Of a stretch of DNA of 64,000 nt, positions 71 to 49,923 are shown piece after piece. A program made the position numbers and the translations under genes. Source of the DNA: Polyangiaceae bacterium (GTDB lineage Bacteria; Myxococcota_A; Polyangia; Polyangiales; Polyangiaceae); the NCBI GenBank assembly GCA_046351325.1, contig JAXLYR010000002.1:560334-624333 (forward strand), in the 5' to 3' direction. Under the pieces are notes generated by a model. That model was given only the letters and a program-made list of their open reading frames with translations. It searched no databases and had not been told where the DNA came from. Position 1 is the first letter of the stretch. Each line of letters starts with the position of its first letter.

Positions 71-2548
71 TCAGGTCGCTCGGGTCGCATGGGATACCTT
101 CGGGGTTGTAAGGGTTGATTGGTGGGTAGCGTCCGCAGGTCGGCTTGTCTGGCGGACCCATTGTCCATTGTGGAGCGCGTATACCGCTCCCTCTCTGTCA
201 TCCAGTTGGAAGAGCGACAACCAGCCATTTTGCGCGAGGTCGCGCACCGTCGCATGCTTCTTCAATACGGCGTCGATGGCAGCCCGCGGGGCCTCGATGA
301 AGACGCTCAGTCGGAGCGGCGTGTGCATCCAACGTGCCCCGTCGTGGAGCGATTGGATGGGTAGCCCGATTCGGAGGTCACCGCTGTTCCCTTCGAATAC
401 GCCCAAGTGACCGCCGACGACGTTGTGCAAGGTTTTGTCGCCGCTTCCATAACGTGGGTTGTCGACCGTCGACGCATAGTATTGGAGGTTGATCCAGTGC
501 GTCACGACCATTGGCGCCGTCATGATGAGCTCGAGGACTGTATGGTTCTCGTCCTCCTCGTAGCGATATTCATGCAAGAAGCAGCGGCCGCGTAGATTGA
601 TATGCCGACAGTGCTCGCGCGGCGCGACGATGAGCGCTGCGTTGTCAGCCAACCCCCACTCCGGGCGAACTTGCGACCAATCCCGACTCCTCGCCTCGAG
701 GGCTCGGCCCAGCGCGGTTGTGGCGAGACCGCTCAGCCCGAGTCGGTCCGAGCGCTCAGCGCGTGCTCGCGCCGTCGCCGCTGCGAGCCACGCTCGGAGA
801 GCCCCCAGATCACCGGAGTGCGATTGCGGCACATCGTCGAGTTCGAAGAGCTCGACCTCGTCGGTCGTCGTGTTGTGGAGCGCCGCTATGAACCACGTGC
901 TCTCGGGAATGTTCACCCCGCGCTCCGCGAGGCTCGCGCGCACGAGCGGATCGTTCAAGAGCGCCGCAGCAGCGCGAGCGTTGACCTCACCGGTCTGCCC
1001 GCCGCAGGCCCCGCAATCGAGCCCGGCCGCGTGCGGATTGTTCCGCGTCGCGCTCCCGTGCCCGACGAGGAGCACGAGCCTCGCGAAGCTCCGCGTCAGG
1101 CTCATTCCCTTGAGCATCGAGAGCGCGAGAGCGCTGCGCGCCTCGAGGTCGAGCGGCTCGCCGTCGACGGTACTAACTAGGCGCGGCCGCCGTCGAGCCT
1201 CCGCGGCAGGTGAGAGCCCCTGTCGGCGCGTTGCGTGTTCACCCAAGCCGAAGCTCGCTTTGAAGAGGTCGACGGCGCTCACGAGCCCGAGCGCTTCGAC
1301 GAACGTGAACGTCGAGACAGCGTCGGCTTTGAAAGCTCTCATCGACGAGCCGAGCTCGAGATGTCTCTCGCGCTGAAGCGCGGCCGACGCTTCGAGGCCG
1401 ATATCTCCAGCCCGAAGTCGCGGCGCGAGCAAACCTGGCAGCTGCGGTCGCGCCGAGGCCGCGCCGAGCGGCTGATACTCGAGGGGAAGGCCGAAGAACC
1501 CAGCGAAGCCGAGCGTCTGAACCTTCGGCGAGGTGGACTCGAGGGCTCGGCGGAGCACCTCGGAGCGGACGTCGATGCAGAAGACGGCCTGGACCGCAGG
1601 GCTCTCCGGGCGCGCGGCGCTGAGCCCGGACGCGAGCGGGCGAAGGAGCGGCTCTCGCCAAGCCTCCTCCAAAGCAGCTTGAAGGAGCCAGTCGCTGACT
1701 CTCGCTTGGGCGGCAGCCTCGTCGACCCTCGGCCAATTGGACATCGCGACAGCCCAGCGCCGCGCGACAACCTCGCCCCCTAGACGATAAAGCAGCCACT
1801 CCCAAGCCACACGAATCGCCAGGAGCTCGACGATCGCCTCGTCGTTACGACCCTGTAAGCGCGCTGTCCATCGTCGATAGGCGCACCACGAGGCCCAGCC
1901 ATTGACGTCCAGCAGCAAGCTCCAGAGATAGTCCGCTCGGTCGGCGGGTTGGACCTCGAGGGAGTCGAGCCCCACGGCGATCATCTGTCGAGCCGACGCG
2001 GGGAGCTCACGAGCGAGCGCACGGTAGCCGCGGGCGCCCATGCGAGCCGCCGGGCTCCGGTCGTCGACCGCAGAGCGCAGCCAACTCTCGTAGAGGCCGC
2101 CGTCCCGCTGCGGATCGAACGAGGCTTGTCCCTCGTCGAAGTAGGCCGCGGCGAATTGACTGATGCTCTGGACGATGAAGCTTCGCCACGAGAGGTCGGC
2201 ATTGATGCTGACATCGACGACGCGAGCGCGCGTGGGCACTGTCGGCTCTTCCTCGTCGAGCAGCGCGCGCAGGCTCGTCAGCGACTCGCCCGACCCGCTC
2301 GCCGCGAGCGCCGCCAAGATATGTTCGTCGCGGAGCTGGCCGCTCCGATAAGCCTCTTTGAAGAAGGCGCGCGGCATGAGCAGCTCGGCGCCGGACAATG
2401 CTCTCAACCTCGCGGCGACCTCGGGAAGCGGCGCGCTCACGAGCCCCCAAAAGGGGTTAACTGCGATGAAGCGATCGAGCGGCCAAGTCGGCGCGATGCG
2501 CGCGCACACCTCGTCGATGACCTCGTGGAGATTGGCGGCCTTGCTCAT
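71..2548 (-). CDS. dabA: DabA, DUF2309/UPF0753 subunit of the DAB inorganic-carbon pump (about 826 aa)
   Basis: Family hallmark residues are visible: FCIDVRSE (Cys/Asp pair), and LVGHGSATRNNPHAAGLDCGACGG (His plus Cys cluster). The ATG (revcomp of 2546-2548) overlaps the dabB TGA (2545-2547) as ATGA. The 1165-aa six-frame ORF (71..3568) has an Arg-rich N-terminal artefact overlapping dabB; the real start is MSKAANLHEVIDE. Confidence 0.8.
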   Translation of the reverse strand: MSKAANLHEVIDEVCARIAPTWPLDRFIAVNPFWGLVSAPLPEVAARLRALSGAELLMPRAFFKEAYRSGQLRDEHILAALAASGSGESLTSLRALLDEEEPTVPTRARVVDVSINADLSWRSFIVQSISQFAAAYFDEGQASFDPQRDGGLYESWLRSAVDDRSPAARMGARGYRALARELPASARQMIAVGLDSLEVQPADRADYLWSLLLDVNGWASWCAYRRWTARLQGRNDEAIVELLAIRVAWEWLLYRLGGEVVARRWAVAMSNWPRVDEAAAQARVSDWLLQAALEEAWREPLLRPLASGLSAARPESPAVQAVFCIDVRSEVLRRALESTSPKVQTLGFAGFFGLPLEYQPLGAASARPQLPGLLAPRLRAGDIGLEASAALQRERHLELGSSMRAFKADAVSTFTFVEALGLVSAVDLFKASFGLGEHATRRQGLSPAAEARRRPRLVSTVDGEPLDLEARSALALSMLKGMSLTRSFARLVLLVGHGSATRNNPHAAGLDCGACGGQTGEVNARAAAALLNDPLVRASLAERGVNIPESTWFIAALHNTTTDEVELFELDDVPQSHSGDLGALRAWLAAATARARAERSDRLGLSGLATTALGRALEARSRDWSQVRPEWGLADNAALIVAPREHCRHINLRGRCFLHEYRYEEDENHTVLELIMTAPMVVTHWINLQYYASTVDNPRYGSGDKTLHNVVGGHLGVFEGNSGDLRIGLPIQSLHDGARWMHTPLRLSVFIEAPRAAIDAVLKKHATVRDLAQNGWLSLFQLDDREGAVYALHNGQWVRQTSRPADATHQSTLTTPKVSHATRAT

Positions 2549-4146
2549 GATGATTGGACCTCCAGGGCCGCGGGGGTCGAGAGCGCGCGCGTCGCTACCT
2601 GCTTTGGACGGGGCAGGTGCGGCGGCCAGACTCGAAACATGAGCCTCGTGAGGAAATCGTCGAGGTAGAGCCCCGAGAACAGCCAGGGATGAAGAGCCCG
2701 GGCGAACGCGCCATTCGGTCGAAGCGCGATTGTCGACTTCGTGATGAACAGTCCGACGAAGCCGAGGCCGACGAGCCAAAGGCCCGCTGAGCTCGATTGG
2801 AGGGTAGGCGTGGGGACGAGGCGCTCCGCCGCTGCGTGCCAGCCGAAATAGAGGGCCACGACGACCAACATGCGCAGCGCGACTCCACTCCAGATTCGGG
2901 GGCTGCGAGGGGCGCTCATGAGCGGTGGCAGCGACAGCCCGACCAAGAGCGTGAGGACGATCGCGGTCGGCCAATGCGCGGGCTTTGCACCCCAATAGGA
3001 CTGCAGGAGCGTGGCTCCGAGGAGCGCGGCGCCGGCGAACAGCAAGGAGAGAGCGCCCTCGAGGATTTGCCGGCCTATCGTCGCGGGCCTCTTCGTGAGC
3101 ACGCGCGTCTCCCAGGCTTCGACGGCCCCGCCCGCGCTCAAGAAGGCGTGGGCCTTGTAAAGCGAGTGCGCGACGATATGCAGGAACGCGAGCGGCCAAA
3201 GCCCGAGGCCACACTGCACGAGCAGGAAGCCCATCTGCGCGCAGGTCGACCAAGCGAGCGCGACCTTCACGCTTACCCGCGTCATCATGACGAGCGCCGC
3301 TGCGATCGTGGACGTCAGTCCAATCGCCACGAGGAGGAGCTGCGCCGGCTCCGCGCGCGATATCCAAGGCGCCAATCGAATGAGCACGAAGCCGCCGATG
3401 TTGACGACACCTGCGTGGAGCAGCGCCGAGACAGGGGTCGGAGCCTCCATCACTTGGGTGATCCAGCCATGAAATGGGAGCTGCGCCGACCTCAACGCGA
3501 CCGCGGAGACGAGGAGCGCTGCGGCGACCTGCATCGACAATGGCAGGTTGCTCTCTGCGCTCAGCCACGCGGCGATGACGTCGAGCTCGAAGCTGCCGAC
3601 GTTCGAGTAGACCAGCAAAAGAGCGGGCGCGAGCGCGAGGTCGGCGAGTCGACTGACCAAGAATTTTTTGTGTGCGGCGACCTGGGCCGCTTCACGGTCC
3701 TCATAGAGGGTGAGGAGCTGGTGGAGGGCGAGGCTGGTCGCGGTCCAAGAGGCCGCCATCACGAGGAGGTTATTGGAGACGACCAGCGTGGTGACCGCGC
3801 TCAAGGTGAAGAGGAGCCAGCGCTGGTAATGATGCCATCGCTCGCTCCGCCGGCCCGTGTCGCCCCCGAGGTAATTCTCTGAGAAGCGAGCGACGATTGC
3901 TCCGAGCGACGTGACCAACACGAGCATGAGGGCCGTCAGCGCGTCGACTCGAACACCGAAGTCCGACGCCGGTCGACCCAGGTCGTAAGCCCCAAAGACG
4001 ACGACCGCAAAGAGCGAGGCCAAGAGGAACGCTGCGCGGAGCAGCGCCGTGGCCCTGCGCGGGAGCAGCGCCCCGCCGAGCGCGAGCGTCACGGGGATCG
4101 CTGCGGCCACGAGCGGCGCGATCGGCCATGTCGGGAGTCCGTTCAT
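2545..4146 (-). CDS. dabB: DabB, NuoL/MrpA/ND5-like proton-translocating membrane subunit
   Basis: Polytopic membrane protein with complex I antiporter-subunit signatures (HGWITQVMEAPTPVSALLHAGVVNIGGF; HSLYKAHAFLSAGG). Sits immediately upstream of, and overlapping, dabA. ATG at 4146 (MNGLPTWPIAPLV) is preferred over the TTG at 4179. Confidence 0.8.
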   Translation of the reverse strand: MNGLPTWPIAPLVAAAIPVTLALGGALLPRRATALLRAAFLLASLFAVVVFGAYDLGRPASDFGVRVDALTALMLVLVTSLGAIVARFSENYLGGDTGRRSERWHHYQRWLLFTLSAVTTLVVSNNLLVMAASWTATSLALHQLLTLYEDREAAQVAAHKKFLVSRLADLALAPALLLVYSNVGSFELDVIAAWLSAESNLPLSMQVAAALLVSAVALRSAQLPFHGWITQVMEAPTPVSALLHAGVVNIGGFVLIRLAPWISRAEPAQLLLVAIGLTSTIAAALVMMTRVSVKVALAWSTCAQMGFLLVQCGLGLWPLAFLHIVAHSLYKAHAFLSAGGAVEAWETRVLTKRPATIGRQILEGALSLLFAGAALLGATLLQSYWGAKPAHWPTAIVLTLLVGLSLPPLMSAPRSPRIWSGVALRMLVVVALYFGWHAAAERLVPTPTLQSSSAGLWLVGLGFVGLFITKSTIALRPNGAFARALHPWLFSGLYLDDFLTRLMFRVWPPHLPRPKQVATRALSTPAALEVQSS

Positions 4147-4225
4147 GTCACCGACTATGGCCTGTATAATCGTTCTCAAAAATAAGATTAAAGTGATCGA
4201 TACGTTCTCCTATTGAGAATGAAAG
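4147..4225. promoter_or_regulatory. AT-rich divergent control region between dabB and the LysR gene
   Basis: Lowest-GC stretch in the window. Inverted repeat TTCTCAA (4173-4179) / TTGAGAA (4213-4219) and direct repeat CGTTCTC (4171-4177, 4203-4209). Candidate LysR operator plus divergent promoters. Confidence 0.45.
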
Positions 4226-5146
4226 ATGAACGTCGAACAGCTCAATTTTCACCACCTCCGCTACTTCTGGGCGGTCGCCAAAGACGGGAATCTGACCCGT
4301 ACGGCGGCTCGTCTGCGCGTCGCGCAGTCAGCGCTGTCGTCGCAGATCCATCAGCTCGAGGAGCAGCTCGGCTGCGCTCTCTTCGATCGCAGTCGCCGCC
4401 GGCTCGCCCTCACGGAGGCCGGCCAGATCGCGCTCGCTTACGCCGAAGAGGTGTTCATGGCCTGCACCGAGATGGTGGCGACGCTCGAGCGCGGTCGGCG
4501 CAGCGACCCGTGGATTCGCATCGGCGCGGTCGCGACGCTGTCGAGGAACTTCCAAGAGTCCTTCGTGAGGCCGCTCCTCGCGCAGTCGGGCGTGTGCCTC
4601 CGCCTCGAGTCTGGGCTGTTCGACGATCTGCTCGAGCGACTGGAGAAGCACGCGCTCGACCTCGTCCTCGCGAATCGCGCTCCCCGTCGAGGCGCGGCGA
4701 CACCCCTACGTTCACGTCGGATCGCACGCCAAGCGGTCAGCATCGTCGGGGTGAAGCGCCGACGACGCTTTCGTTTCCCGAAGGACGTCGCGGACGCGCC
4801 GATGATCCTCCCGGGTCGGGAGAGCGACCTCCGCTCCGAGTTCGACGCCATGTGCGAGCAGTTCGGCGTCCGCGTTCGAGTCCTGGCCGAGGTCGACGAC
4901 ATGGCCACGATGCGGTTGCTCGCTCGCGACGCGGACGCGCTCGCGCTCTTGCCCACGGTGGTCGTCCGTGACGAGCTCCACAGCGGGGTCTTGCACGAGC
5001 ACTGCGCTGTCCCTGGCCTGTTCGAGAATTTCTACGCCATCACCGCGGAGCGCATGTTTCAGCATCCGCTCATCGAGACCGCGCTCGCGCGTGACGAGCG
5101 CGACCTGCTCGAGACGACTGCGCCCCGCCGGCCGAGGAACGCCTGA
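4226..5146 (+). CDS. LysR-family transcriptional regulator
   Basis: N-terminal HTH motif LNFHHLRYFWAVAKDGNLTRTAARLRVAQSALSSQIHQLEEQLG, about 306 aa. Divergent from dabBA. Confidence 0.85.
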   Translation: MNVEQLNFHHLRYFWAVAKDGNLTRTAARLRVAQSALSSQIHQLEEQLGCALFDRSRRRLALTEAGQIALAYAEEVFMACTEMVATLERGRRSDPWIRIGAVATLSRNFQESFVRPLLAQSGVCLRLESGLFDDLLERLEKHALDLVLANRAPRRGAATPLRSRRIARQAVSIVGVKRRRRFRFPKDVADAPMILPGRESDLRSEFDAMCEQFGVRVRVLAEVDDMATMRLLARDADALALLPTVVVRDELHSGVLHEHCAVPGLFENFYAITAERMFQHPLIETALARDERDLLETTAPRRPRNA

Positions 5147-5149
5147 TTT

Positions 5150-5164
5150 CGCGTGTCGTACGCG
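5150..5164. terminator. Short GC hairpin between convergent stops
   Basis: CGCGT-GTCGT-ACGCG (5-bp stem) sits exactly between the LysR stop (5144-5146) and the TCA/TGA at 5165-5167. Confidence 0.3.
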
Positions 5165-8100
5165 TCAGAGCCCGAGCTCGAGCCCGAGCGCGATCGTCGC
5201 CGCGTGCGTCGGGATCGCGTAGAACGCCCGTCGCGTCGGCTCCTCGCGGATGCGCGCGGCCCGCGTGTGGAGCCGCTCCAGCGCGTCGCGCGCCGCGTGC
5301 GCGGCCCGTGGATCGCTCGTCGCCATGAGCGCGCGGACCCACGCGAGGCAGACGACGGCCTCGCCCTCGTCGAGCACCCAGCGGCGCGCCTCGGCGTGTT
5401 CGATGGCCTCTCCGCGAGCGTGACAGCGCGCGCAGCGTCTCCGGCGGCGAGCGTCGCGAGCGCCTCGGTGGCGGTGGCGTACGGCAGGTGTTGCGGGTGG
5501 AGCTCGGCGCGCCGTCGCCCCGCGCGCGCCTCGGCGAGCGCTTGTTCGACGAGGCCTTCGGTGAGCAAGATCTCGCTCCTGTAGATGCGGCACGAGACCT
5601 CGTGGTGCATCGAGATCCCCGGCATCTCGAGGCATCGCTCGATGTGTCGCCGCCCGAGCGCGGGCCTGCCGGCGCGCGCGACCGCGAGCCCGAGGTTGTG
5701 GAGCGTGACGACGCGCAGGCCGTCGAGATCCATCCGCTCGGCGGTCGCGTACGCGGGCTCGAGCATCGCGATCGCGTCGGACAGCAGGCCGAGCTCGATG
5801 CTCATGAAGCCGGCGTTCGCGCGGTCGACCGCGGCGGAGCGCCGATTGCCGGCCTCGTCGTGGAGCGGAAACGCCCGAGCGAGGTGGCGACGCGCGCTCT
5901 CGAGATCGCCCGCGAGCTGTCGATCCCAGCCGAGCGCTCGTTCGAGGTAAGCGCGCACGTTCGCGGGCACCGGGTCGAGCGCGCGCGACGCCTTCTCGGC
6001 CGACGCGAAGAGCGCGCGGCGCAGCTCGGCGTCCGCGGCGAGCGCGATGCTCGAGGCGAGCCAAGCGCACCCCACGGCGAAGGACTCGACCGCGTCGGGG
6101 TCGGGCTTCGTCGCGATGAGATCGCGCAGCGCTTGCTGGAATCGGGGCGTGTCGGCGAGGCGCTCGGCGCTCATCGCGAGCTCGTAGAGCGCGACGCATC
6201 CATGGCGCGAGCCGGGTCGCAGAGCGCGGGCGGCGCGCGCGGCGTAAGCGGCCGCGCGATCGAAGCGGCCGCGCCAGCGCAGGGCCTCGGCGGCGACCAA
6301 GGCGAGGCGACCGGAGACGGGCTCGAGCGCGGGATCCTCGCGTCGCTCGAGGATCGCGAGCGCGCGCTCCGCGTGGCTCAGCGCGAGCGCGGTGTCGTCC
6401 GAGGCGAGCGCCCTCTCAGCGGCGTCGAGCCTGAACGGGAGCGCCGAGTCGGGGCGATCTCCACGTTCGAAATGCTCGGCGATCACCGCGGGATCGGCGC
6501 CCGCGAGCTCTGCGAGCCGCGCGCCGGCGCGGCGATGCCCTCGCGCGCGATCCGCTTCGGTGAGGCCTTGGTAAGCGCCCTCGGCGACGACCCGCTGACA
6601 AAACCGAAAGCGACCCGGAGCGCCGCCGTCGTCGGGCACGAGGAGCTCGAGCTCGAGCAGGCGAGGCGCCGCGCGCGCTGTCGCGCCCGGCTCGTCGAGG
6701 AGGTCGTCGACGAGGTCCGCGGTGAACGCGACGCCGAACACGCTCGCCGCGCGCAGGACGCGCCGCTCTTCGACCTCGAGCGCGTCGAGCCGGCCCTGCA
6801 CGACCGCGAGCAGAGAGTCGGGGAGCGCGTCCCCCGAGGCCTGCGTGCGCGCGAGCTGCTCCAAGAAGAGCGGGTTGCCGCCGGCGCGCTCGGCGATCTC
6901 GGTGACGCGCGTCGCGGGGGCGTCGGGTGGCAGGAGCGCGCGAGAGAGCTTGAGCGACGCCGCGCGCGAGAGCGGCGAGAGCGGCAGCCCGAGCGCGCGC
7001 GGCCCTGCGAGCTCGCGCGCCGGAGAGTCGTCCTCCTCCTCGAGCGGCCGACCGAGTGACACGATTGTAATCGGCGCCTCGGAGAGCGTGCGCTGCAAGC
7101 GGGCGAGGAGCGCGGCGCTCGCGCGGTCGGCCCACTGCGCGTCGTCGACGATCAGCACCGTCGGGGTCCGCGTCGTCAGCGCGCGCACGACCTCTTCGAA
7201 GGCGCGGCGCATGGCCTCGGCGGTGCCAGTCGGATCGCCGAGCCTTGCCTCGAGCCCGAGCGGCGCGCGCACGAGCGCCCCGAAATCCGCCAGCGTTCGA
7301 GCGTCGAGCGCGGGGCCGACGGACGCAGCGAGCTTCGTGATCGCGCGATCGATCTCGGCGCTCGACGAAGAGGTCGTCGCGCCGCAGAGCGCCCCCGCGA
7401 GGTGCGCGACGCACGCGAGCGCGCTCCCCGCCTCGAAGGCGTCGGCGGTCGCACGATAACAACGAAAGCCGAGCCCGCTCAGGCGTCGCTCGAGCTCGAA
7501 CGAGAGCCTCGTCTTGCCCGCACCGGGCGCGCCGGTCACGAGCGCGGCCCCCGCGGTGCGCTCGTCGCGCGACTCCTCCGCCAACGTGACGAGCTGGGTC
7601 ATCTCGCGATCTCGCCCGACGAAGGGGCCCCCGCCAGTCCCGGTCGGTAGCGCGAGTCGATCCATCGAGATCCAAGCGCCGGACGCGTCGTGCTCGACGG
7701 CGAGGTGCGGCTCGAACGCCGCGACGGCCTGGTCATCGAGCGCGATGCGCTCGACCGCGCCGCGCGGATCGGCGAGCCGCGCGCGAGCTGCCGCGAGTCG
7801 CTCGGGCGCGCGCGCCACGAGCGGTTCGCGAGAGGAGTCCTTGTCGACGCGGAGCACGCCGAGCCACGTGCGCTCGGCCCAGCCGGCCTCGACGAGCTCG
7901 GCCGCGCAGCGGAGCGCGGTCGTCGCGAGCTCGACCAGCGTGGCGCCGCGATCGACCACGACCGCGAAATGCTGTTCGTCGATCGCCTCGGGCGTGCCGA
8001 ACCGCGCGCAGCTTCGCAGGAGCCACGCGACCGACTCGTCGGCCGCGCCCGTGTGATCGAGCTTCGCGATGACGAGGCCGGCGACGCGGACCTCGTGGTC

Positions 8101-9189
8101 GCTCATGCGCGAGATCGGCGCGAGCTCGAGCTCGCTCTCGACGCGCACCGTGGGTGGCGCGGCGTCGATATCGTCGAACTCGCTCGAGTTGATGGTCGGA
8201 CCGGCGTCGCTCCCCGAGCCGCTCGGGGCCGCAGGCGAGGGGGCTTGGGGCGTCGTCGGCGCGATCGTCACCGCCGCTCCCGGCGCGGTCTCGCTCGGCG
8301 CGAGCGTCGCTGTGGCGAGGGCAGCGTGGGGCGCAGGCAGCCCGTCGATCCGGATCGCGCCGCGCGACAGGAGGTGCGCGAGGAGCGGCCGCAGATCGCT
8401 CATCCGCCGCTTGCGATCGCGCACCAGCATCGCGTCGACGAGCGCCGCGAGCGCCGGATCGATCGCGCGCGCGACCGACGCGAGCGGAGGGATCGGATCG
8501 AAGAGGATGCTCCGCAGGAGCGACGCGATGCTCGCGGTCGTGAACGGCGAGCGCCCCGCGAGCGCCTCGAACAAGACGACGCCGAGCGCCCAGACGTCGA
8601 CGCGCTGGTCGATCTCGCGATCGGCGAGCAGCTGCTCGGGCGCCATGAACGCGGGCGTCCCGATCGCGGCGCCGGTCTTCGTGAGGTTCGACGCGAGGCC
8701 GACGCGGCCCTTCAGCTTCGCGAGCCCGAAATCGAGGATCAGCCCGCGGCCGTCGCGAGTTACAAAGATGTTACCGGGCTTCACGTCGCGGTGGACGATG
8801 CCGTGCGCGTGCGCCGCGGCGAGCGCGCCCGTCACCGATCCGAGCAGCGCGAGCGCGCGCTCCTCGGCGAGCGGCCCCTCGCGCGCGAGCAGCGCGTCGA
8901 GCGACTCGCCCTCGCAGAGCTCCATCGCGAGCCCGAGCTCCTCGCCGCCCGCCTCGAAGACCTCGTGCACGCGGCGCACGCCCGGGTGCTGCACGATGCC
9001 GATCGCGAGCGCCTCGCGGCGGAGCCGCTCGCGCGCCACGCTGTCGCCCGCCGCGTGGAGCAGCTTCAGCGCGACGAGCGCGCCGCTCGCCCGATCGCGC
9101 GCGGCCCAGACCTCGCCGACGCCGCCTGCGCCGAGCTTGTCGACCAGTTCGAAACGCCCCTGGATGACCTCACCGGGGAGGTGCCCCAT
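5165..9189 (-). CDS. Ser/Thr protein kinase fused to an AAA (P-loop TGAPGAGKTRL) NTPase and a TPR/helical C-terminal region; the 3' end is frameshifted in this sequence
   Basis: N-terminal kinase motifs GAGGVGEVW, HRDVKPGNIF, DFG, APE, then a Walker A motif. The annotated six-frame ORF (5059..9189) becomes Arg/Ser-rich junk after about 5410 and would overlap LysR. A different frame continues protein-like (…GEAIEHAEARRWVLDEGEAVVCLAWVRALMATSDP…AIPTHAATIALGLELGL) to the stop at 5165. Confidence 0.75.
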
Positions 9190-18208: not shown

Positions 18209-18817
18209 CTACACGACCTTCGCGAGGACCCGCGCGAGCTCGCCGACGAAGGTCCGATCGACGTGCTCCAGGTCGGCCTCGCGCGGCTGGATGAGGAGGC
18301 CCGTCACGAGCGGCCTCGTGATGAACGGCGGCGGCAAGGGCGGCAGCGCGGGCGCGGCGCGCAGGTAGGTCGCGTAGCCGAAGACGGGCTTGTCGTTCGC
18401 GAACGGCGGGAGCGGCGGGCGTGGCCACTCGTCGACCGCGACGTGGCCGTACGTCGGACTGACGACCTTCGCGAGCCCCTCGAGGAGGAGCGCCGCCTTG
18501 CCGAGCTCCAACCCGCCGCGGAACCGCACCACGATCTGATGAGGGATCCACGCCGACGGTAAGGGCCAATCCACCCCGGCGATCATGGACAGCGTTGTAA
18601 CTCGACCGGCGAGCTCCACGCCGAACGCCGTGCGCGCGCCGCCGACCTCACAAGGGCGCCTCGATCGCTCGACGGTCGCGCGCGGGTCGCGGCAGGCTGG
18701 GGCCCAGCTCGCGTCGCCACGCCCGAGGACCTCGAGCACTGCTGCCAAGCGACCAGCGACAGCGTCGACGTCCTCTCGCTTCGGCGCGTCGTAGAGCCGC
18801 ACGGACAGCGACCTCAC
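18209..18817 (-). CDS. Putative cognate immunity protein for the lipase effector
   Basis: GTG start overlaps the effector TGA (GTGA). About 200 aa with no recognisable catalytic motifs. Confidence 0.45.
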   Translation of the reverse strand: MRSLSVRLYDAPKREDVDAVAGRLAAVLEVLGRGDASWAPACRDPRATVERSRRPCEVGGARTAFGVELAGRVTTLSMIAGVDWPLPSAWIPHQIVVRFRGGLELGKAALLLEGLAKVVSPTYGHVAVDEWPRPPLPPFANDKPVFGYATYLRAAPALPPLPPPFITRPLVTGLLIQPREADLEHVDRTFVGELARVLAKVV

Positions 18818-20802
18818 GACGCGTCCTCCGCGGGGAGCCCGTAGAACTCGCGCGCCTCGGCCGAGATGCCCTTCACGAGCTCGTCGCGGACGGTCGCGTC
18901 CACCGCGAGCTCGGCGTGGGGGACCTGGCTCAGCTTGACGAAACGCTCGGAGAGCGGGCTCGAGACGAGCTCGTCCGGCGGACACGCTGACAAGAGTGGA
19001 ACCGCGCCGTCGCCCCAGAACGCCGCGCCCGTGGCGTCGGGTGTAGCGGGCGGGGTCGCGAACGGTGGGGTCGGCAGATACGACCACACGATGGAGTTCG
19101 CGTCGTAGCTCGAGCGGACGTCGAGGCATGCGAGGGTGCCCCCCGACTCGACAGCAATGTCCGAGGTCGCGTACGCGCTCGTCCGCGGGTGCACGTACGC
19201 GCGCGGCTTGATCTTGACCGCCGCTCTGTCCGCGGGCCGCTCGTCGAGCCTCTTCTTGAGCGCGGTCATGGCGTCCGTCTGCGTCTTGCTGTTTGCGACC
19301 GCGCGCCCGGCGGCCTCCGTGAAGGCTGCGGTCAGCGTCTCGGGCGCGGGCATCGATGGATTGAGCGTCAAGCTGTCCTCGAACCTCCGCGCGAGATCGA
19401 GCCCGAGCTTCGACAGGGGACGCAGGTCGACCCGATCGAGTAGGCCTACAAAGATGTCATTGTAAAGCGCGACCGGGTTCCGACTATTGATGAAGTGCTT
19501 GAGGATACGCTCCATAATGGCCTGTATGCGGGCCCCCAATCGATAGGCCTCTCGCGCGACCTTGCCCTCGGGGATCGTCATGAGCCCGATGAACGCCTCG
19601 GCGAACGTCTCCTTGTTCGCGCGCGTCAGCCTCGTGTCCTGCTCGACCGAAGCGGACGAGCGGGCGCGCTCCTCGGCCCGCGCGATCTCCGCGCCGAACA
19701 CCTGGATCCACGGGTTCTCCCCCGAGGTGGGCTTGTCGTGGATGGTCGTCGGGTCGAGCGGCGTCGGCAGCATCACGACATAGCCGCGCTGCGGATACGC
19801 CGTGTGCCACGGGTCGAAGCGCATCCAATGGCGCTCTCGGTCGCAATAGATGGCGTGGGGCATCGACTGGAAGATCGAGGGCATCGCGCGGAGGAACGCG
19901 ACAGTCTCGGCCCGCGTGAGACAGCGCCCCGCGCCGTGGACGAGCAACATATACAAGAGTGTCAGGTAGCCGACGTTCGCGACGCCGCCGCTCGCCGCGG
20001 TCGCGATCGCCGCCGCGATGTTGCCCGCGTCGGTGAGCGCTCCCTGCACGGTCGCGGCGACGTCGTCTTCCTCCTCGGGGTCGACGTGGAAATAGTCCTT
20101 CACGTAGGCGCCGGGGAGGCCATGTTTGAGGTGTACGAACATCTCGGGCGCGCCCAAGATCGGCGAGCCCAAGAGGTGCATCGCGAAGATCTTCGGCTCG
20201 CCGGCGAGCACGCGGCTGTAATAGCGAGCGACGCTACCGCCCATTCCGTGCGCGACGAGGACACATTGGGACTCTCCTGTCTCGGCGAGCACGCGGTCCA
20301 CGTATTGGGAGAGCCGCGCGGCCGACTTGCAGAGGTCGAGTCGCCAGTCGTATCCGAAGCAGTAGACCCTCACCCCGAGATCCAGCTCGGGGTGGTCTTT
20401 GCTCAACCTGTCTGTAAGCGATACGAGCAGATCCTCGAGGAGCAAGTCGTAGAAGGGCAGGACCAGCGCGCCGAGGTCGATGGGCTGATCGATGCGCTCG
20501 ACGGGCGCCTCGGCGTGGTGATCGACGACCTTTTCGGGGTCCGAGCGGTCGTAGAAGTCAGTCGCGGGCACGAGCTCGGTCGGCTCGAGCAGGCGGCCGT
20601 ATTGAATGACGAACGGCCCGCTCGTCGCGATCGTCATGGGGAAGCCGCTCGGGTTCCAGACGAGCTGGTCCGTCCCGGGGTCCTTGAGCCTCGTCATGAA
20701 GAGGTCCGGGATCACCACGACAGGCAGGAGGCGCCGCCGCAGGCCGAGCCGCACGCGCCGCCCCCCGCTCCGCTCGATCGTCCCTGACAAGATGCCGCTC
20801 AT
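18814..20802 (-). CDS. T6SS cargo effector candidate: LCAT/PGAP1-like alpha/beta-hydrolase lipase with Ser to Gly at the canonical nucleophile
   Basis: LCAT-family landmarks FGYDWRLD and LLGSPILGAPEM (cf. LGAPWGGS). Nucleophile elbow reads VLVAHGMGGSV rather than GHSxG. Sits 12 bp overlapped with, or downstream of, vgrG. Confidence 0.6.
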   Translation of the reverse strand: MSGILSGTIERSGGRRVRLGLRRRLLPVVVIPDLFMTRLKDPGTDQLVWNPSGFPMTIATSGPFVIQYGRLLEPTELVPATDFYDRSDPEKVVDHHAEAPVERIDQPIDLGALVLPFYDLLLEDLLVSLTDRLSKDHPELDLGVRVYCFGYDWRLDLCKSAARLSQYVDRVLAETGESQCVLVAHGMGGSVARYYSRVLAGEPKIFAMHLLGSPILGAPEMFVHLKHGLPGAYVKDYFHVDPEEEDDVAATVQGALTDAGNIAAAIATAASGGVANVGYLTLLYMLLVHGAGRCLTRAETVAFLRAMPSIFQSMPHAIYCDRERHWMRFDPWHTAYPQRGYVVMLPTPLDPTTIHDKPTSGENPWIQVFGAEIARAEERARSSASVEQDTRLTRANKETFAEAFIGLMTIPEGKVAREAYRLGARIQAIMERILKHFINSRNPVALYNDIFVGLLDRVDLRPLSKLGLDLARRFEDSLTLNPSMPAPETLTAAFTEAAGRAVANSKTQTDAMTALKKRLDERPADRAAVKIKPRAYVHPRTSAYATSDIAVESGGTLACLDVRSSYDANSIVWSYLPTPPFATPPATPDATGAAFWGDGAVPLLSACPPDELVSSPLSERFVKLSQVPHAELAVDATVRDELVKGISAEAREFYGLPAEDAS

Positions 20803-20814
20803 GGTCGTGCTCCC

Positions 20815-23800
20815 TCAGCTCCGGTAGGTCGTTGGGTCGAGGGCCTTCTCGGTCGCGCCGCCTTGGATGAGCTCGCCGCTCGGCGCGAGGCCCTGATCAC
20901 GCTGGTAGAGCGCGAGCGCTGCGACGTTCGCGGCGTCGGACGCGAGGGCTGCCTGCGCGCCCTTCTTCTCGAGCGGCGGCTCGATGGCCCGCGGGCTCGC
21001 GGGGTAGCCCAAGTTGAGGAGGCGCTGGCGCGTACCCTCCGCGGACTCGAGCGCGGCAAGTTCGTCAACCAGCTTGACGGACCACACGAGCGGCGCGTCG
21101 AAGAGGCGGTCGTCGGGCGCGACTTGATCGACGAAGAGGACCAAGGTCCCGCGCTCCTCCTTCAGGAGATCGCTCGGCACAGTGAGATCCGCGAGGCCGT
21201 CGTCGTCGGTCTCGCCGGCGAAGACCTGCGCGCGGAGCGTGAGCTCGAACCGCGTCTTCTTGAACGGGAGGAGACCGTGGTGGAGCGCGAGCTTGAGGGT
21301 CTCGGTCTTGGGCTCGCTGCTCTCTTCGCTCGCGTCGCTCGCGCTCGCGTTCGCCGAGCCGCTATCGAGCTTCACCGCTGGGGACTGGACGGTCGCGGCG
21401 TTCGCAGCTTTGAGCGTGGCCGAGTCCTTCTCGAGGACGAACGACGTCGACTGCGTCTCGAGCTTGAGCTTGGTGAGCGCCGAGCTCGCGACCCCCTCGT
21501 CGCTGAAGCTGAGCTCCTCGGTCTTGCGGCCCAGGGTGAGTTTGTCGTCCGCGTGGAGGTCGACGGTCTTCGCGGCTCGAATGACAACCTTGTCACTCGA
21601 GAGCGTGATCGTGTCCTTCGTGAGCTCGAGGAAGCTCGCGCCGCACGAGAGGCGCACCGTCGCGCCGTCTTTGTCCGTCAGCGTCGTCAGCTCGATCCGC
21701 TCGGTCGCGGTCGTGAGGACGCTGCCTTGTACGAACGTCGCGAGACGTCGCGCGGTCGGCGCGCCCTGGCCGACCTCGAGCGAGGCGTCGCCGAAGACGA
21801 TCTCGGTCGCGTCGCCCCCGACGGCGCGGTGACGCTCCCTCTTCACGCGCTCGAACGACACGCCGTCGACCTCGCGCGAGGCGCTGCCCCCGACGTGCTC
21901 GTCGAGGTTCTGCGCGACGTCGACGATGCGCCGCCCCTCCACCCTGATGACGGACGCGCCGCCAACAAGCTCGGTCGCGTCGCCGCCGCTCACCGCGAGG
22001 CGCGCGCCCTCCACGTCGCTCTCGAGCGTGCCGACGACGCGCTCTCGTCGGTCGCCGAGCACCGTCGTCGAGTGCGTGTCGGTGACGATCTCCTCGAGGT
22101 CCTTCTGGGCGTGCAAGAAGACCCGCTCGCAGCCCTGCGTGTCGTCGAACGAGAGCTCGTTGAAGCCGTCCCCGGTCGGGATCGACTGCGTGCGGAGCCC
22201 TGATTTGCCGAGCTGCTCGGGCAGCACGAACGGCAGCGGGTGGGTCGCGTTGTAGAGCGCCCCCATCACGAAGGGTCGGTCTGGGTCGCCGCCGACGAAC
22301 GCGACGACGACCTCCATCCCGACGCGCGGGAAGAACTGGAAGCCGAAGCCAGTGCCGGCCCACGGCTGCACGACACGCAGCCAATAGGAGGAGCGCTCGT
22401 CGTAGCGTCCTTGTCGGTCCCAATGGAATTGCACCTTCACCCGGCCGAGCCTGTCGACGAAGAGCGGCTTGCCAGGCGGGCCGACGACGACCGCAGTCTC
22501 GGGCGCGGCGGCGCGCAAGCGCTCAGGCGGCTCTGGACGATAGGCCACGTCCGCGGCGACCCACTCGAACGTGTTCGCGTATCCGGGCGCCCCGGACTGG
22601 GCTCCTGAGTTGACTTCGCAGTAAGCCGAATGGGTCACTCTGACAGGCGTGTAATCGCCCTCTTCGAAGGTTCGCGGCGTGCGGAGCCAATGCACCTTGT
22701 GACCCGGGAGGAGCCGCGGACAGTCGGACGCTCCCGACACGATGCGCGCGCGCCTGCGGTGCTGTTCGAGCGTCGCGCCCGCGAGGTCGGCCGTGAGGTC
22801 GGGTTTGTCATATTCACCGTGGTGCTCGTAGACCTCGAGCAGCGCCTGCGCGGCGAGGGCCGGCGCCTCGTGGAGCGAGCTCTCGGCTTTGTGGATTTGC
22901 AGCGGCTTGCGGTAGTCGCGGTCGCGGATCTCGACGCGCTGGACGGCCGCGGCCCGCCGCGCGACGACCGCTCGGATCGCGCGTGGCGCGCGTGGCTCGG
23001 CGCCGCTCGGTGCGCTCGACTCTACCCAATAGAGCTCGTCGCGCTGCGGAGCAGGCTCGGTTGCGGTCGAGAGCCCAGCCATCGCGTGAATCGGCGCCTC
23101 ATAATGGAGCGGGTCCAATCGCGCTGTGCCGCGGTGGCGCGTCGACCGGAATCGCTCGGCCGGTGCGTCCTCTCCCGCAGCGCCCGTCTCGGTCATATCG
23201 TCGTAGCCGTCGTCCCGAATGACGAGGACATCACAAGGGTGCGAAATCGAGGGTCCGCGGCCCTCGAAGATCCGCGACCTCGGGTCTTCAGGCTCTTCCT
23301 CGAGCGTCGAAAACACCATATCGGCGAACATGTTCGCTTGCCCCGCTTGGGCGTTCGAGCCGCCGGCGAACTGCGCCGACCCACCCGCAGCCGGCCCGGC
23401 CGCCGCACCTGCGCCGCCGCCAATTCCGAGCGCGACGCCCGCGGCGACGACGATGTCGGGCGGCTCGGGGATGGGGTCACCGCGACCGACGTGCTCCTCG
23501 ACGTGTTCGTAATACCAATAGACGCCAGCCTCGGCGAGGAGCCGGGTGACGAACTGCCAATCCGTCTCCTCGTATTGGGTCGTATACGGCCTGCGCTTAT
23601 AGGTCCTGTGGAGCGCGAGTCTGTGCGGTACGCCCGCGGTAGAGAGCACGCGGCTCACCACGTCGTGGAGGTGCATCGCTTGGAAGGACTGGGTGTTCTT
23701 GCGCAGGGTCGCGACGTGGGTGTGCGGGCGTATCTCGAGCTTGAGCACGAGCGGGAGAGCACAGTCGCCCGGTGCGAGCTCGACCGCCGTCACGATGCCG

Positions 23801-24012
23801 CTGCGCGGGACGCCGGCCACGTGCATGGAGAACGTCGCGGCGACGCCGAGCAGGTCGTGCGCGAGCGTGTCCACGTCGGCAGGGTGGTCGACCGGCGCGT
23901 GCCTCAGCTCGATGGTAAAAAGAAAGGGCTCGTTCACGGCCTCCACCCCCGAGATGGAGGTGATGGACCAATCGTCGAGTTGGTACGCGGCGTCGTGGAG
24001 CTCGAGGTGCAT
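20815..24012 (-). CDS. vgrG: VgrG spike protein with a C-terminal extension containing a peptidoglycan-binding-like (PG_binding_1-like) module
   Basis: N-terminal gp27-like region (TDWQFVTRLLAEAGVYWYYEH) and gp5-like beta-helix. C-terminal RQRLLNLGYP…AANVAALALYQRDQGLAPSGELIQGGATEKAL. Confidence 0.8.
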   Translation of the reverse strand: MHLELHDAAYQLDDWSITSISGVEAVNEPFLFTIELRHAPVDHPADVDTLAHDLLGVAATFSMHVAGVPRSGIVTAVELAPGDCALPLVLKLEIRPHTHVATLRKNTQSFQAMHLHDVVSRVLSTAGVPHRLALHRTYKRRPYTTQYEETDWQFVTRLLAEAGVYWYYEHVEEHVGRGDPIPEPPDIVVAAGVALGIGGGAGAAAGPAAGGSAQFAGGSNAQAGQANMFADMVFSTLEEEPEDPRSRIFEGRGPSISHPCDVLVIRDDGYDDMTETGAAGEDAPAERFRSTRHRGTARLDPLHYEAPIHAMAGLSTATEPAPQRDELYWVESSAPSGAEPRAPRAIRAVVARRAAAVQRVEIRDRDYRKPLQIHKAESSLHEAPALAAQALLEVYEHHGEYDKPDLTADLAGATLEQHRRRARIVSGASDCPRLLPGHKVHWLRTPRTFEEGDYTPVRVTHSAYCEVNSGAQSGAPGYANTFEWVAADVAYRPEPPERLRAAAPETAVVVGPPGKPLFVDRLGRVKVQFHWDRQGRYDERSSYWLRVVQPWAGTGFGFQFFPRVGMEVVVAFVGGDPDRPFVMGALYNATHPLPFVLPEQLGKSGLRTQSIPTGDGFNELSFDDTQGCERVFLHAQKDLEEIVTDTHSTTVLGDRRERVVGTLESDVEGARLAVSGGDATELVGGASVIRVEGRRIVDVAQNLDEHVGGSASREVDGVSFERVKRERHRAVGGDATEIVFGDASLEVGQGAPTARRLATFVQGSVLTTATERIELTTLTDKDGATVRLSCGASFLELTKDTITLSSDKVVIRAAKTVDLHADDKLTLGRKTEELSFSDEGVASSALTKLKLETQSTSFVLEKDSATLKAANAATVQSPAVKLDSGSANASASDASEESSEPKTETLKLALHHGLLPFKKTRFELTLRAQVFAGETDDDGLADLTVPSDLLKEERGTLVLFVDQVAPDDRLFDAPLVWSVKLVDELAALESAEGTRQRLLNLGYPASPRAIEPPLEKKGAQAALASDAANVAALALYQRDQGLAPSGELIQGGATEKALDPTTYRS

Positions 24013-24039
24013 GGGAGGGTCCCTTCGCTTACAGTCGTG

Positions 24040-25161
24040 TCAAGGTTTGGCGCGCTCGCGCAGGGCCCTCACGCGGTCGTCGAGCGCGCTCAGGAACCTG
24101 CGCTGCAGGGCGGGGTCCCGCATGAACATCGTGGCGAAATGCACGCGAACGGCCTCTCGCGCGGCGCTCGTGGTGAGGCCGTAGTCAGCCCACGCCTCCG
24201 CCGACAGATCGCCGTCGACGAGCAATTGCGCGCGGATCGCGACGTAGTCGTCGAGGCTGGTTTGTGGCAGCGCGAGCGTCTCGTCAGCGGGGTCGCGCGG
24301 CGCAGTGCTCTCGCGGACTGGAGTCCCAAACATCTCGGCGACGACCGCGCGCGGCGTCGTACCCCCGAATGGCAAGGCCGGGCGCGGCGCGAGCGGCGCG
24401 GCGATCGGGACTGTCGCGTCCGCAAAATCCTGAACTTGCTTTATCGACAATAAAGGAACCCTCGATTCGGTCGTGTTCGTCGACAGGGCACCGAGAGGGG
24501 CCGCGAGCTCGCGCGGCGCCGACAGGCCTCGTTTCGTCGCCAAGGCCATTTCGAGGATCGCGAAGCGAGCGTCGTCGTCGTCGTGCTCCGCGCCGCGCGC
24601 GTGGGCCTGAATCAGCCATCCGTCGCCGAGCCGCGTCTGTGTGGCTCCGCGCGGGAGCGGCTCCGGCACGGGGCGAAGGCGGTAGTTGAGCCATCCGAAG
24701 GGCAGGTGCCTTTGTTCGAAGGGGCGAATCGTCGCCGCGTCGAGCTGCCCTTCTTCGACCCACTCGCGGAGGAGCTCGGCCCACGGGATCGGGCCGCAAT
24801 GGACGAGCGCCTCGAGGCTCAGGCCCGGCTGTGTGGTTGCGACGCGAGAAGCAAAGACGATGTCCACGCGCCCTTCGACCGACTTGGGATCACCCTCGGT
24901 CGAGAACGACAGGCGCGCAGATGGCTGACCCGTGCGCGCCCCGGCCGCGCTCGGACTGCGCGGTGACAGGACGAGCGGCTCTCTCAGGGCGCGCGAGAGC
25001 ACTCCGAGCCAGGTCGAGGCGAGCGTCGCGGCCTGCTCGATGTCGAGGGGGCGCGTATGGCGACTGAGCTCCAGTTGAATCCTGCTCACGGCAGGGGAGT
25101 CGACGGGCGCTCCGAGCCGGTGACAGCCCTTCGTTGGGCGTCTCGCTCGACGAGCTGTCAC
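24040..25161 (-). CDS. Hypothetical protein immediately upstream of vgrG (possible T6SS accessory or adaptor)
   Basis: Ends 27 bp before vgrG. Protein-like composition. No motif that I can name. Confidence 0.4.
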   Translation of the reverse strand: MTARRARRPTKGCHRLGAPVDSPAVSRIQLELSRHTRPLDIEQAATLASTWLGVLSRALREPLVLSPRSPSAAGARTGQPSARLSFSTEGDPKSVEGRVDIVFASRVATTQPGLSLEALVHCGPIPWAELLREWVEEGQLDAATIRPFEQRHLPFGWLNYRLRPVPEPLPRGATQTRLGDGWLIQAHARGAEHDDDDARFAILEMALATKRGLSAPRELAAPLGALSTNTTESRVPLLSIKQVQDFADATVPIAAPLAPRPALPFGGTTPRAVVAEMFGTPVRESTAPRDPADETLALPQTSLDDYVAIRAQLLVDGDLSAEAWADYGLTTSAAREAVRVHFATMFMRDPALQRRFLSALDDRVRALRERAKP

Positions 25162-25229
25162 GGCTCTTGCTTGGCTCGGATCGGCTCGCCGTCCGCGAAT
25201 TGTCTGCGGACCGGATTTGGAGGGCTGCC

Positions 25230-46115: not shown

Positions 46116-46390
46116 TTGGCCCCGCGCTCGTGGGTCGCGCAGTCTACCAGAAGTCGCCGGAGAGCCGCGGGTAGCTTGCACACCTCGCAAGCAATCAGCC
46201 TTCTCTTCTAGGTCGAGACCAGTGAGCGGCGACGTGAACCGCACTCGGGTTTTGTCTTTTTCGAGTTCGCAACGGGAATGTTTGCGGAGTGAGGAGCCTT
46301 GCCCTGTACGATCCCTCCTACCGGTCCAGTCTTCCGCCGAGTGGCCCCGAAAACACAGCTGGGTCGCTTCCGCGCAGAAAAGGAAGGGCT

Positions 46391-46750
46391 ATGAACATCT
46401 CGATCACGTTCCGGCATATGGATGGCACGGATGCGGTCAAAAACTATGCGAACGAGAAGATCTCTCGGCTGCAGAAGTTCCTGCGTCAGGCGATGACGGC
46501 GCAAGTCACGCTCTCCGTCGAGGGCTTGGAGCACATCGCTGACGTGCGCATCCACTCGGGGAGCGCGACGTTCCACGCGAACGAGCGCAAGGAGGACATG
46601 TACGCTTCGATCGACCTCGTCCTCGACAAGCTGGAACGTCAGATCCACGCCCAGAAGGGGGCGAACGTCGCAAAGAAGCACGGTGGGATGAGCGCTGGTG
46701 AGTTCGCGGTCGCGGTCGAACGCGAGTCGCAGCGCGGCACGCGCGGCTGA
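46391..46750 (+). CDS. hpf: Ribosome hibernation-promoting factor / sigma-54 modulation protein
   Basis: MNISITFRHMDGTDAVKNYANEKISRLQKF. AGGAAGG RBS. Confidence 0.85.
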   Translation: MNISITFRHMDGTDAVKNYANEKISRLQKFLRQAMTAQVTLSVEGLEHIADVRIHSGSATFHANERKEDMYASIDLVLDKLERQIHAQKGANVAKKHGGMSAGEFAVAVERESQRGTRG

Positions 46751-47005
46751 GTTCTTCGGCAGAGTTTTTCGGCTGAGTTTCTCGTAAGTGGCCGTGGCCT
46801 TCGCTGGCGCGAGCGAACAGGACCGGTGAGGAGGTCGAGCCTGCGAGGGCTCGCGGCCACAGCAGGGTAGACACAGCAGGGTGGACGCAAGACGCGTCGT
46901 TCAGCGGGGGGCGCCGAACGACGCGGGCAGTTGTCCCGTCGGTGCGGGGCGATCGCAAAAGGCAGTTCGTGTTGTGGCGTGTGCTAAGGTTCCGGAGCCT
47001 TAGCC

Positions 47006-47497: not shown

Positions 47498-47570
47498 TGC
47501 GGGGCTCGCGTTCGCTTCACGACGTTCTCGCGCTCAGTCTCCCGCTTCTTGGAAAGGCAGCCTGGAAGCC

Positions 47571-49873: not shown

Positions 49874-49923
49874 CCGCCGACGCTGGTGGGACACGCGACG
49901 GCGGTCGCGAGGCTGCGGAGGCC

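Follow-up and report, generated by a model that had tools for sequence, protein, structure and literature searches.

A predicted DAB2-type inorganic-carbon pump under proposed divergent LysR control in a Polyangiaceae bacterium

Why would a myxobacterium carry a pump for inorganic carbon, and what would switch it on? We address these questions for a locus of three genes, dabB, dabA, and a divergently transcribed lysR, at one end of a 64-kb stretch of DNA from a Polyangiaceae bacterium (the whole of the stretch that was examined is here called the window). The NCBI entry with a 100% identical DabA is listed as 'MAG: DUF2309 domain-containing protein [Polyangiaceae bacterium]' (MAG, metagenome-assembled genome) and lies on a 1.14-Mb contig. 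A preliminary description of the window had proposed a two-gene DAB module, its genes joined by an ATGA overlap and paired with a LysR regulator across an AT-rich control region, in an otherwise myxobacterial genome. We consider it very probable that the locus encodes a functional DAB2-type inorganic-carbon pump under divergent LysR control in a non-autotrophic member of the Polyangiaceae. The features of the locus are collected in Table 1.

Table 1. Positions of the genes and sequence elements of the dabBA-lysR locus in the window.
Feature	Position	Strand	Description
dabA	71-2548	-	825-aa cytoplasmic beta-carbonic-anhydrase-like subunit, predicted DAB2 type
dabB	2545-4146	-	533-aa NuoL-like cation/proton-translocating membrane subunit
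lysR	4226-5146	+	306-aa LysR-type regulator, NhaR-like; HTH_1 and LysR_substrate domains; divergent from dabB
dabB/dabA stop/start overlap ATGA	2545-2548	-	Read from sequence
Shine-Dalgarno GGAGG of dabA	2559-2563	-	10 nt upstream of ATG
Divergent dabB/lysR control region	4147-4225		79 bp, 37% GC
Distal LysR-type box CGTTCT-N7-AGAATG	4203-4221		Imperfect dyad containing T-N11-A; proposed recognition site
Proximal box ATTTTTGAGAACG (dabB strand)	4171-4183	-	Proposed activation site, overlapping dabB -35 region
Candidate dabB -10 CATAGT	4154-4159	-	7 nt before dabB ATG; tentative
Candidate lysR -10 TATAAT	4165-4170	+	55 nt upstream of lysR ATG; read from sequence

The pump subunits and their junction

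The product of dabA matches the DUF2309 family PF10070 over the full length of the profile (positions 1-747 of 747; 868 bits, E=8e-261), as the preliminary description had expected. It also matches DabA2 of Halothiobacillus neapolitanus (PDB 9rd0_A, E=3.9e-182), to which it is 43.5% identical over 775 alignment columns, and its reading frame has no internal stops. The zinc-site residues recognized earlier lie in VFCIDVRSEV (C324 and D326) and GHGSATRNNPHAAGLDCGACGG (H497 and C512), and they align exactly to C351, D353, H524, and C539 of DabA2 in structure 9rd0. Taking the roles of the DabA2 functional residues from the structural work (10.64898/2026.03.13.711513), we find that all 11 of those mapped are kept in the window DabA. 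These are the Zn ligands (DabA2 C351/H524/C539; window C324/H497/C512), the Asp-Arg dyad (D353/R355; D326/R328), the relay residues (S356/H585/D590; S329/H558/D563), A376 (A349), the strictly conserved L658 (L633), and the essential Glu of the membrane 'finger' (E444; E418, within STFTFVEALG). Furthermore, C324, D326, R328, H497, C512, and L633 are invariant in 81 of 81 aligned DabA sequences.

All three motifs specific to DAB proteins are present, as GFAGFFG (position 347), NNPHAAGLDCGACGG (position 503), and DWSQVRPEWGL (position 623, containing L633). They correspond to the G(I/F)(A/G)GFFG lid, NNP....LDCGACGG, and DW...RPEWGL, the last with Leu replacing the canonical Gln/His (10.64898/2026.05.01.722082). 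A longer gene call with a GTG start at 3568 (71-3568 in the list of open reading frames) was rejected; the extent of homology, the Shine-Dalgarno sequence, and the overlap with dabB all point to the ATG at 2548.

The partner protein, DabB, has the PF00361 match anticipated for a NuoL-like subunit and a PF00662 match as well. It scores 472 bits against the short NuoL-like family NF006029 (cut-off 380) and matches DabB2 (PDB 9rd0_B, E=1e-67) with 39.2% identity over 444 columns. The equivalents of DabB2 R182 and D185 are kept as R166 and D169, while the Glu of NuoL transmembrane helix 5 (TM5) is replaced by T135; this Glu is absent from DabB2 too. One DabB transmembrane helix contains LHIVAHSLYK, an H-x3-H-x3-K pattern noted by eye only. 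A TTG start at 4179 (open reading frame 2545-4179) was rejected in favor of the ATG at 4146, the position of which is conserved in seven myxobacterial loci.

Both subunits are intact, adjacent, and co-oriented, in agreement with the two-gene module first described. At their junction (...TCATCATGAGC / GGAGGtccaatcatcATGAgc), the dabB stop codon TGA (2547-2545) overlaps the dabA start codon ATG (2548-2546). This ATGA overlap, also reported in the preliminary description, is repeated in L081, L082, and L083 (labels of the form L0xx denote related loci used for comparison). The overlap and its recurrence in relatives indicate that the two genes are probably co-transcribed and translationally coupled. 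No third gene downstream of dabA is conserved among 58 related loci, and the cassette is therefore one of three genes (lysR, dabB, and dabA); for the same reason, the edge of the window, 70 nt beyond dabA, probably hides nothing essential.

The size of DabA (825 aa, against about 830 aa for the subtype), the HAAG variant of its NNP motif at the YESA positions, which vary in this subtype, and the lack of a DabC gene assign the predicted system to the DAB2 subtype; there is no open reading frame for DabC between or beside dabB and dabA in the window. The H. neapolitanus DAB2 complex, studied by cryo-electron microscopy (9rd0, 9rd8, and 9rd9), has the same dabB-dabA gene order, likewise has no DabC, and contains a DabA2 of 827 aa. 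It has in common with the window proteins the Zn site, the Asp-Arg dyad, Leu658, Glu444, and the R182/D185 equivalents. The two differ in the NNP motif, which reads NNP-HRAG-LDCGACAG in DAB2 and NNP-HAAG-LDCGACGG in the window. The DAB1 systems (H. neapolitanus Hneap_0907-0909 and Thermocrinis albus DabABC) also have the active site and the three DAB motifs in common with the window DabA. However, DAB1 is a heterotrimer that requires the small membrane protein DabC, its DabA is apparently longer (zinc Cys C709, versus C512 in the window), and it carries a strict NNPYESALDCGACGG motif, where the window reads HAAG in place of YESA.

The divergent regulator and its operator

The best curated match of the LysR protein among NCBIfam families is NhaR (NF008284), which it matches over the full length with 155 bits. 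This falls short of the equivalog cut-off of 219, and the regulator is for that reason classed here as NhaR-like rather than as NhaR. The second-best curated match is CynR (103 bits, cut-off 277), and CbbR (NF045990) scores 67 bits against a cut-off of 450; neither cut-off is reached. Close homologues carry the Joint Genome Institute (JGI) name 'LysR family transcriptional activator of nhaA'. Matches in the PDB are confined to the N-terminal part of the protein: 5y2v, a 'Rubisco operon transcriptional regulator', matches residues 5-153 only, in the N-terminal half, no other match reaches further, and the search returned no close structure for the effector domain. Escherichia coli NhaR, the activator of nhaA, and CynR, which controls the carbonic anhydrase and cyanase operon cynTSX, are LysR-type proteins like the window regulator, but their targets differ from dabBA. 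The genes for both NhaR and CynR adjoin their target genes.

The pairing of DAB genes with this regulator extends well beyond the window. We surveyed 80 loci with a gene for a DabA relative, all from GTDB species representatives. A full-length LysR orthologue (47-73% identity) is divergently oriented just upstream of dabB in 56 of the 80, and the gene is present in 53 of the 63 related loci with sufficient upstream sequence. The LysR-linked loci belong to Myxococcota, Burkholderiales, Lysobacterales, Methylotenera, Lacimicrobium, Acidobacteriaceae, and Actinomycetota. Reverse look-ups gave the same result. Three LysR homologues were picked for lying on contigs absent from the DabA matches, and all three adjoin dabB-dabA, in a Polyangiales MAG, a Polyangiaceae MAG, and Corallococcus exercitus, with a spacer of 79-80 nt and a four-base dabB/dabA overlap. 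The divergent pairing claimed in the preliminary description is thus borne out, and we propose, from this conserved arrangement, that LysR is the dedicated regulator of dabBA.

Ten loci lack the lysR gene despite sufficient upstream sequence (L006, L007-L010, L045, L051, L055, L058, and L079). Among them are other MAGs of Polyangiaceae and Kofleriaceae, of which three fall on a separate DabA branch. There are therefore at least two lineages of DAB systems in Myxococcota, with different regulation.

The spacer between dabB and lysR is indeed AT-rich (37% GC, versus 68% for the window), and it contains two conserved boxes. The distal box is centered at about -66 from the dabB start and lies 5 nt upstream of the lysR ATG; the proximal box ATTTTTGAGAACG is the equivalent of the family consensus ATTTTACaGAAc. 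To derive an operator consensus, 48 of 57 intergenic regions were anchored at their first GAAC (nine have no GAAC in the stretch searched), which gave aTCT-N7-aGAACG ... aATGtATTTTACaGAA ... GGCAnAGTC. Counts were then made in all 57 regions and in base-shuffled controls. TTTTAC occurs in 46 of the 57 regions (2.2 in shuffles), TCT-N7-AGA in 22 (1.5 in shuffles), and the combined operator pattern in 35 (0.1 in shuffles). The spacing in GAAC-N21-TTT[AT][CG] is exactly 21 nt in 34 loci. The boxes recur in Myxococcota, Pseudomonadota, Acidobacteriota, and Actinomycetota. In an alignment of seven myxobacterial spacers, GTTCT (4172-4176), CGTTCT (4203-4208), and the dabB start codon are invariant and their spacing is fixed.

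LysR-type activators usually have their recognition site at about -65 and their activation site at about -35. As read from its sequence, the window operator has this canonical activator geometry. The candidate dabB -10 element, CATAGT, corresponds to the box GGCAnAGTC of the family, which follows TTTACA by about 17 nt; this pattern is found in 29 of the 57 loci (1.1 in shuffles). The candidate lysR -10 element, TATAAT, is not conserved in the seven-locus alignment; if it does serve lysR, the distal box would lie inside the lysR leader and would allow autorepression. A terminator scan gave terminator-like matches at chance level.

No Shine-Dalgarno sequence precedes the dabB start in any of the seven myxobacterial copies (the window, L081-L083, and L002-L004). 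Together with the -10-like box 7 nt before the ATG, this tentatively suggests that the dabB transcript is leaderless or nearly so. A -10-like box 6-8 nt upstream of dabB is seen in the window and in L002-L004, and is poorly conserved in L081-L083. By eye, the dabB leaders of the Burkholderiales and Acidobacteriota relatives are apparently about 25-45 nt long.

Proposed function and alternative explanations

Given 43.5% identity and the retention of every functional residue, the mechanism described for the homologues would apply to the window proteins as well. In the homologues, gated tunnels lead to a buried Zn site at which DabA hydrates CO2. The conformational changes that make hydration one-directional are thought to be powered by protons flowing through DabB and the finger helices of DabA, and uptake of inorganic carbon is abolished by carbonyl cyanide m-chlorophenylhydrazone (CCCP). 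Borrowing catalysis and energy coupling from these systems, we envisage that DabA, a zinc beta-carbonic-anhydrase-like enzyme, would sit on the NuoL-like DabB in the membrane and convert CO2 that has diffused in to bicarbonate within its buried active site. A flow of cations, most likely protons, through DabB and DabA would render this hydration one-directional, and bicarbonate would accumulate in the cytoplasm. The same principle, in which a NuoL/NdhF-type subunit makes CO2 hydration directional, operates in the cyanobacterial NDH-1MS/CupA system; that system, however, runs on redox chemistry within a multisubunit NDH-1 complex, and its CupA bears no relation to DabA.

Both subunits would be made from one dabBA transcript, with translation coupled through the ATGA overlap. 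LysR would bind the dyad box at about -66 and the half-site overlapping the dabB -35 region, and we infer that it activates dabBA upon some signal and represses its own gene. The accumulated bicarbonate would be available to acetyl-/propionyl-CoA carboxylase, pyruvate carboxylase, and carbamoyl-phosphate synthetase, and the supply of carboxylases in a non-autotroph is the likely role of the system, a role that has also been proposed for heterotrophs at large. CO2 capture for anaplerosis or pH homeostasis, as suggested in the preliminary description, would be a possible physiological role. There is precedent for such a role: Staphylococcus aureus, a non-autotroph, uses MpsAB (PMC6689103), and DAB homologues rescue E. 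coli that lacks carbonic anhydrase (10.1101/476713). MpsAB, to which NdhF-YbcC of Bacillus subtilis is related, likewise consists of a NuoL-like subunit and a DUF2309 protein, and it provides the bicarbonate needed to grow in ambient air (PMC6689103, PMC8552792). Compared by description, it differs from the window system in its Firmicutes host, in an operon that includes mpsC, and in its proposed Na+/bicarbonate coupling, and there are no reports of an accompanying divergent NhaR-like regulator.

Some observations weigh against this reading of the locus. The Lys of TM7 (DabB2 K235, NuoL K229) is Arg in the window DabB (R219, nt ~3490-3492), and Arg cannot easily shuttle protons. The closest named family of the regulator, NhaR, senses Na+ rather than inorganic carbon. 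Many of the 57 operator loci come from related Burkholderiales, so the operator counts overstate the number of independent events. Finally, a generic sigma-70 scan called no promoter in the spacer, either at CATAGT or at TATAAT, so the promoter assignment draws entirely on conservation across loci.

Arg occupies the K235 position in 5 of 73 aligned DabB sequences, the window included. Relatives with Arg at this position are found in Nannocystaceae, Kofleriaceae, Labilithrix, Polyangiales, Corallococcus, and one Burkholderiaceae, and another Polyangiaceae copy of DabB has Lys. A DabB2 K235A variant retains complementation, at reduced yield. Since both Lys and Arg occur among relatives and the K235A variant still complements, we treat R219 as probably a conservative polymorphism of an ion-pair residue and not as a sign of a different mechanism. 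The idea that the substitution marks a functionally distinct subclade was downgraded, as both residues are found among close myxobacterial relatives.

The Arg substitution and the regulator's kinship nevertheless bear on an explanation in which the locus encodes an MpsAB-like, Na+-coupled system, either a transporter of Na+ and bicarbonate or a cation pump that builds up membrane potential. Such a system would serve Na+ and pH homeostasis, with bicarbonate secondary, and would be switched on by an NhaR-like sensor of Na+ or alkaline stress. Here, the full-length match of the regulator to NhaR and the JGI 'activator of nhaA' naming would be expected, a poor proton carrier at TM7 would be less of a puzzle, and a gene with a Na_H_Exchanger domain about 4 kb from the cassette in L081 would fit. 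S. aureus MpsAB has, moreover, been argued to use Na+, and it rescues E. coli deficient in Na+ transporters (PMC6689103). Yet the NhaR score stays below the equivalog cut-off, so that the two are at most putative orthologues, the TM7 position varies between Lys and Arg among close relatives, and the exchanger gene neighbors the cassette in one locus only. The closest solved relative, H. neapolitanus DAB2, has no need for Na+ and does not rescue a delta-nhaAB strain. The whole catalytic apparatus of a carbonic anhydrase is kept unchanged in 81 of 81 relatives, and a pure cation pump is disfavored because it would have no reason to retain it. We therefore regard Na+ coupling as unlikely, and the DAB2-type carbon pump as the better account of the locus.

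Whether such a pump would instead be part of a true CO2-concentrating mechanism depends on what the rest of the genome encodes. DABs were discovered as essential components in chemoautotrophs, many genomes with DabA also have Rubisco, and the 64 kb in view belong to a contig of at least 1.14 Mb, so that Rubisco and the Calvin-Benson-Bassham cycle (CBB), or another route of autotrophic or mixotrophic fixation, could be encoded elsewhere. However, among the Pfam-annotated genes of the window there are none for Rubisco, phosphoribulokinase, carboxysome shells, the CBB cycle, or a CbbR-type regulator, and the lysR product itself lies far below the CbbR cut-off. Across 58 loci, no carbon-fixation gene is conserved beside the cassette. 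The same three-gene cassette, judged by gene order, is present in Corallococcus exercitus and probably also in Archangium, and C. caeni and Archangium gephyra encode close DabA homologues. C. exercitus, C. caeni, and A. gephyra are cultured predatory organoheterotrophs. The host of the window, as far as 64 kb of its genome reveals, would likewise be a heterotroph, unlike H. neapolitanus, a chemoautotroph with carboxysomes, and we judge a role in carbon fixation very unlikely. We give even less credence to the possibility that the cassette arrived by horizontal transfer and is now a functionless passenger, decaying or silent. Its flanking genes differ among myxobacterial loci, a few sequences from other phyla are nested within the mostly myxobacterial DabA clade, dabA of the relative L081 contains an in-frame stop, and the GC content of the cassette and its GC at third codon positions (GC3) are slightly below those of its immediate neighbors. 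Against this, all three reading frames are intact and full length, every functional residue is kept, and the operator boxes show conservation as well. In composition the cassette is unremarkable (66.1% GC, versus a mean of 68.4% for the whole window); the apparent drop arises because the adjoining kinase gene has 74% GC, and a compositional signal of horizontal transfer, which had looked plausible in a sliding-window profile, was rejected.

Distribution, surroundings, and significance

Myxococcota are rich in DabA homologues (60-71% identity), among them those of the cultured genera Corallococcus and Archangium. In a neighbor-joining tree, the window DabA falls within a mostly myxobacterial clade that also holds a few sequences from Acidobacteriota, Nitrospira, and Verrucomicrobia, and the genes that flank the cassette vary between myxobacterial loci. 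In L081 (Polyangiales MAG JAWKRC010000004.1, 2858-5347), an in-frame stop splits dabA into pieces of 550 and 264 aa, a sign either of a pseudogene or of an error in assembly; the dabB and lysR genes beside it are intact.

The preliminary description had implied that such a locus is unusual, and this part of it found no support. DAB function and the presence of DABs in heterotrophs were reported in 2018-19 (10.1101/476713; PMC6689103), and structures of DAB2 and DAB1 have been described (10.64898/2026.03.13.711513; 10.64898/2026.05.01.722082). A divergent LysR gene at operons of nuoL-like and ybcC genes was noted in 2017 as 'clade A' (PMC5700660). In that COGNAT analysis, a reversed COG0583 LysR gene stands at the 5' end of nuoL-like and then ybcC, an arrangement identical to that of the window. 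The paper is older than the assignment of DAB function, and neither the regulator subfamily nor the operator is described in it. In H. neapolitanus, a lysR-type gene with the same high-CO2-requiring phenotype has its own context, apart from the DAB2 operon. In the literature we searched, no paper found ties DAB or MpsAB to myxobacteria, and none characterizes a DAB-linked LysR regulator. The locus is thus an ordinary member of a known cassette that is common in Myxococcota and spread over many bacterial groups in at least four phyla. What is new here is the NhaR-like character of the regulator, an operator conserved across phyla, and a cassette of only three genes. Also added is the Arg in DabB in place of the TM7 Lys of DabB2.

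The remainder of the window fits the earlier characterization of the genome as otherwise myxobacterial. By Pfam annotation, it encodes Ser/Thr kinases with AAA_16 domains, a DUF2378 protein, a sigma-54 activator, VgrG, an rpoN-associated cluster of the nitrogen phosphotransferase system (PTS-Ntr), a terpene synthase, and secreted proteases, a mix of genes that reads as typical for myxobacteria. An Rfam scan and a tRNA scan of the window were both empty.

Next to lysR lies a convergent gene (5059-9189, minus strand) for a 1376-aa Ser/Thr kinase with AAA_16, which overlaps the final 88 nt of lysR as called and is unusually GC-rich (74%, versus 68% for the window). Further along, a VgrG-like spike gene with Phage_GPD, Phage_base_V, and Gp5_trimer_C domains (20815-24012, within 18814-25161, minus strand) is flanked by genes for a 662-aa protein with a weak LCAT/lipase match (18814-20802) and for a 373-aa protein without a family match; this region may represent a type VI secretion spike with a lipase-type effector. 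A 1774-aa open reading frame (25134-30458, plus strand) has a whole-protein score of 263 bits for Disintegrin (PF00200), which is unusual for bacteria. Its best single Disintegrin stretch is about 30 residues long, so that the score probably derives from many short Cys-rich repeats, and its GC3 (0.77) is below that of neighboring genes. The rpoN-associated cluster (46289-51989, plus strand) comprises an S30AE hibernation factor, a PtsN-like PTS EIIA-2, an HPr kinase, RapZ, and a phosphoenolpyruvate-utilizing enzyme I, and on this gene content reads as a nitrogen-PTS-type module. At 59739-62277, a gene for a 514-aa protein with a spermidine-synthase domain (plus strand) adjoins a family-2 terpene synthase gene (61294-62277, minus strand), and together they could be a small terpenoid locus.

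The regulatory arrangement raises a further possibility, which we hold only tentatively and think somewhat doubtful. The NhaR-like LysR and its operator (gTTCT-N7-AGAAC, 21 nt, TTTAC-AGAAC, and a -10-like box, across at least four phyla) might form a dedicated switch that travels with dabBA and possibly responds directly to inorganic-carbon status, the cue being bicarbonate, CO2, or a metabolite indicative of carboxylation. In that case, it would represent an uncharacterized family of regulators that respond to inorganic carbon in non-photosynthetic, mostly heterotrophic bacteria, and it would offer a ready-made biosensor for bicarbonate or CO2, with a promoter that apparently yields a leaderless dabB mRNA in myxobacteria. 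The signal that induces DABs outside autotrophs is not addressed in the literature we found. As a by-product, our analysis provides a defined regulatory module, consisting of a regulator subfamily, two operator boxes, and their geometry, with which that signal could be sought.

Our reading of the locus as a carbon pump suggests that Myxococcota, cultured predatory genera included, commonly carry an intact, regulated CO2 pump of the DAB2 type. This fits a growing view that heterotrophs spend membrane energy on bicarbonate. In myxobacteria, such a pump could matter in dense swarms and fruiting bodies, and for organisms that make many metabolites derived from malonyl-CoA.

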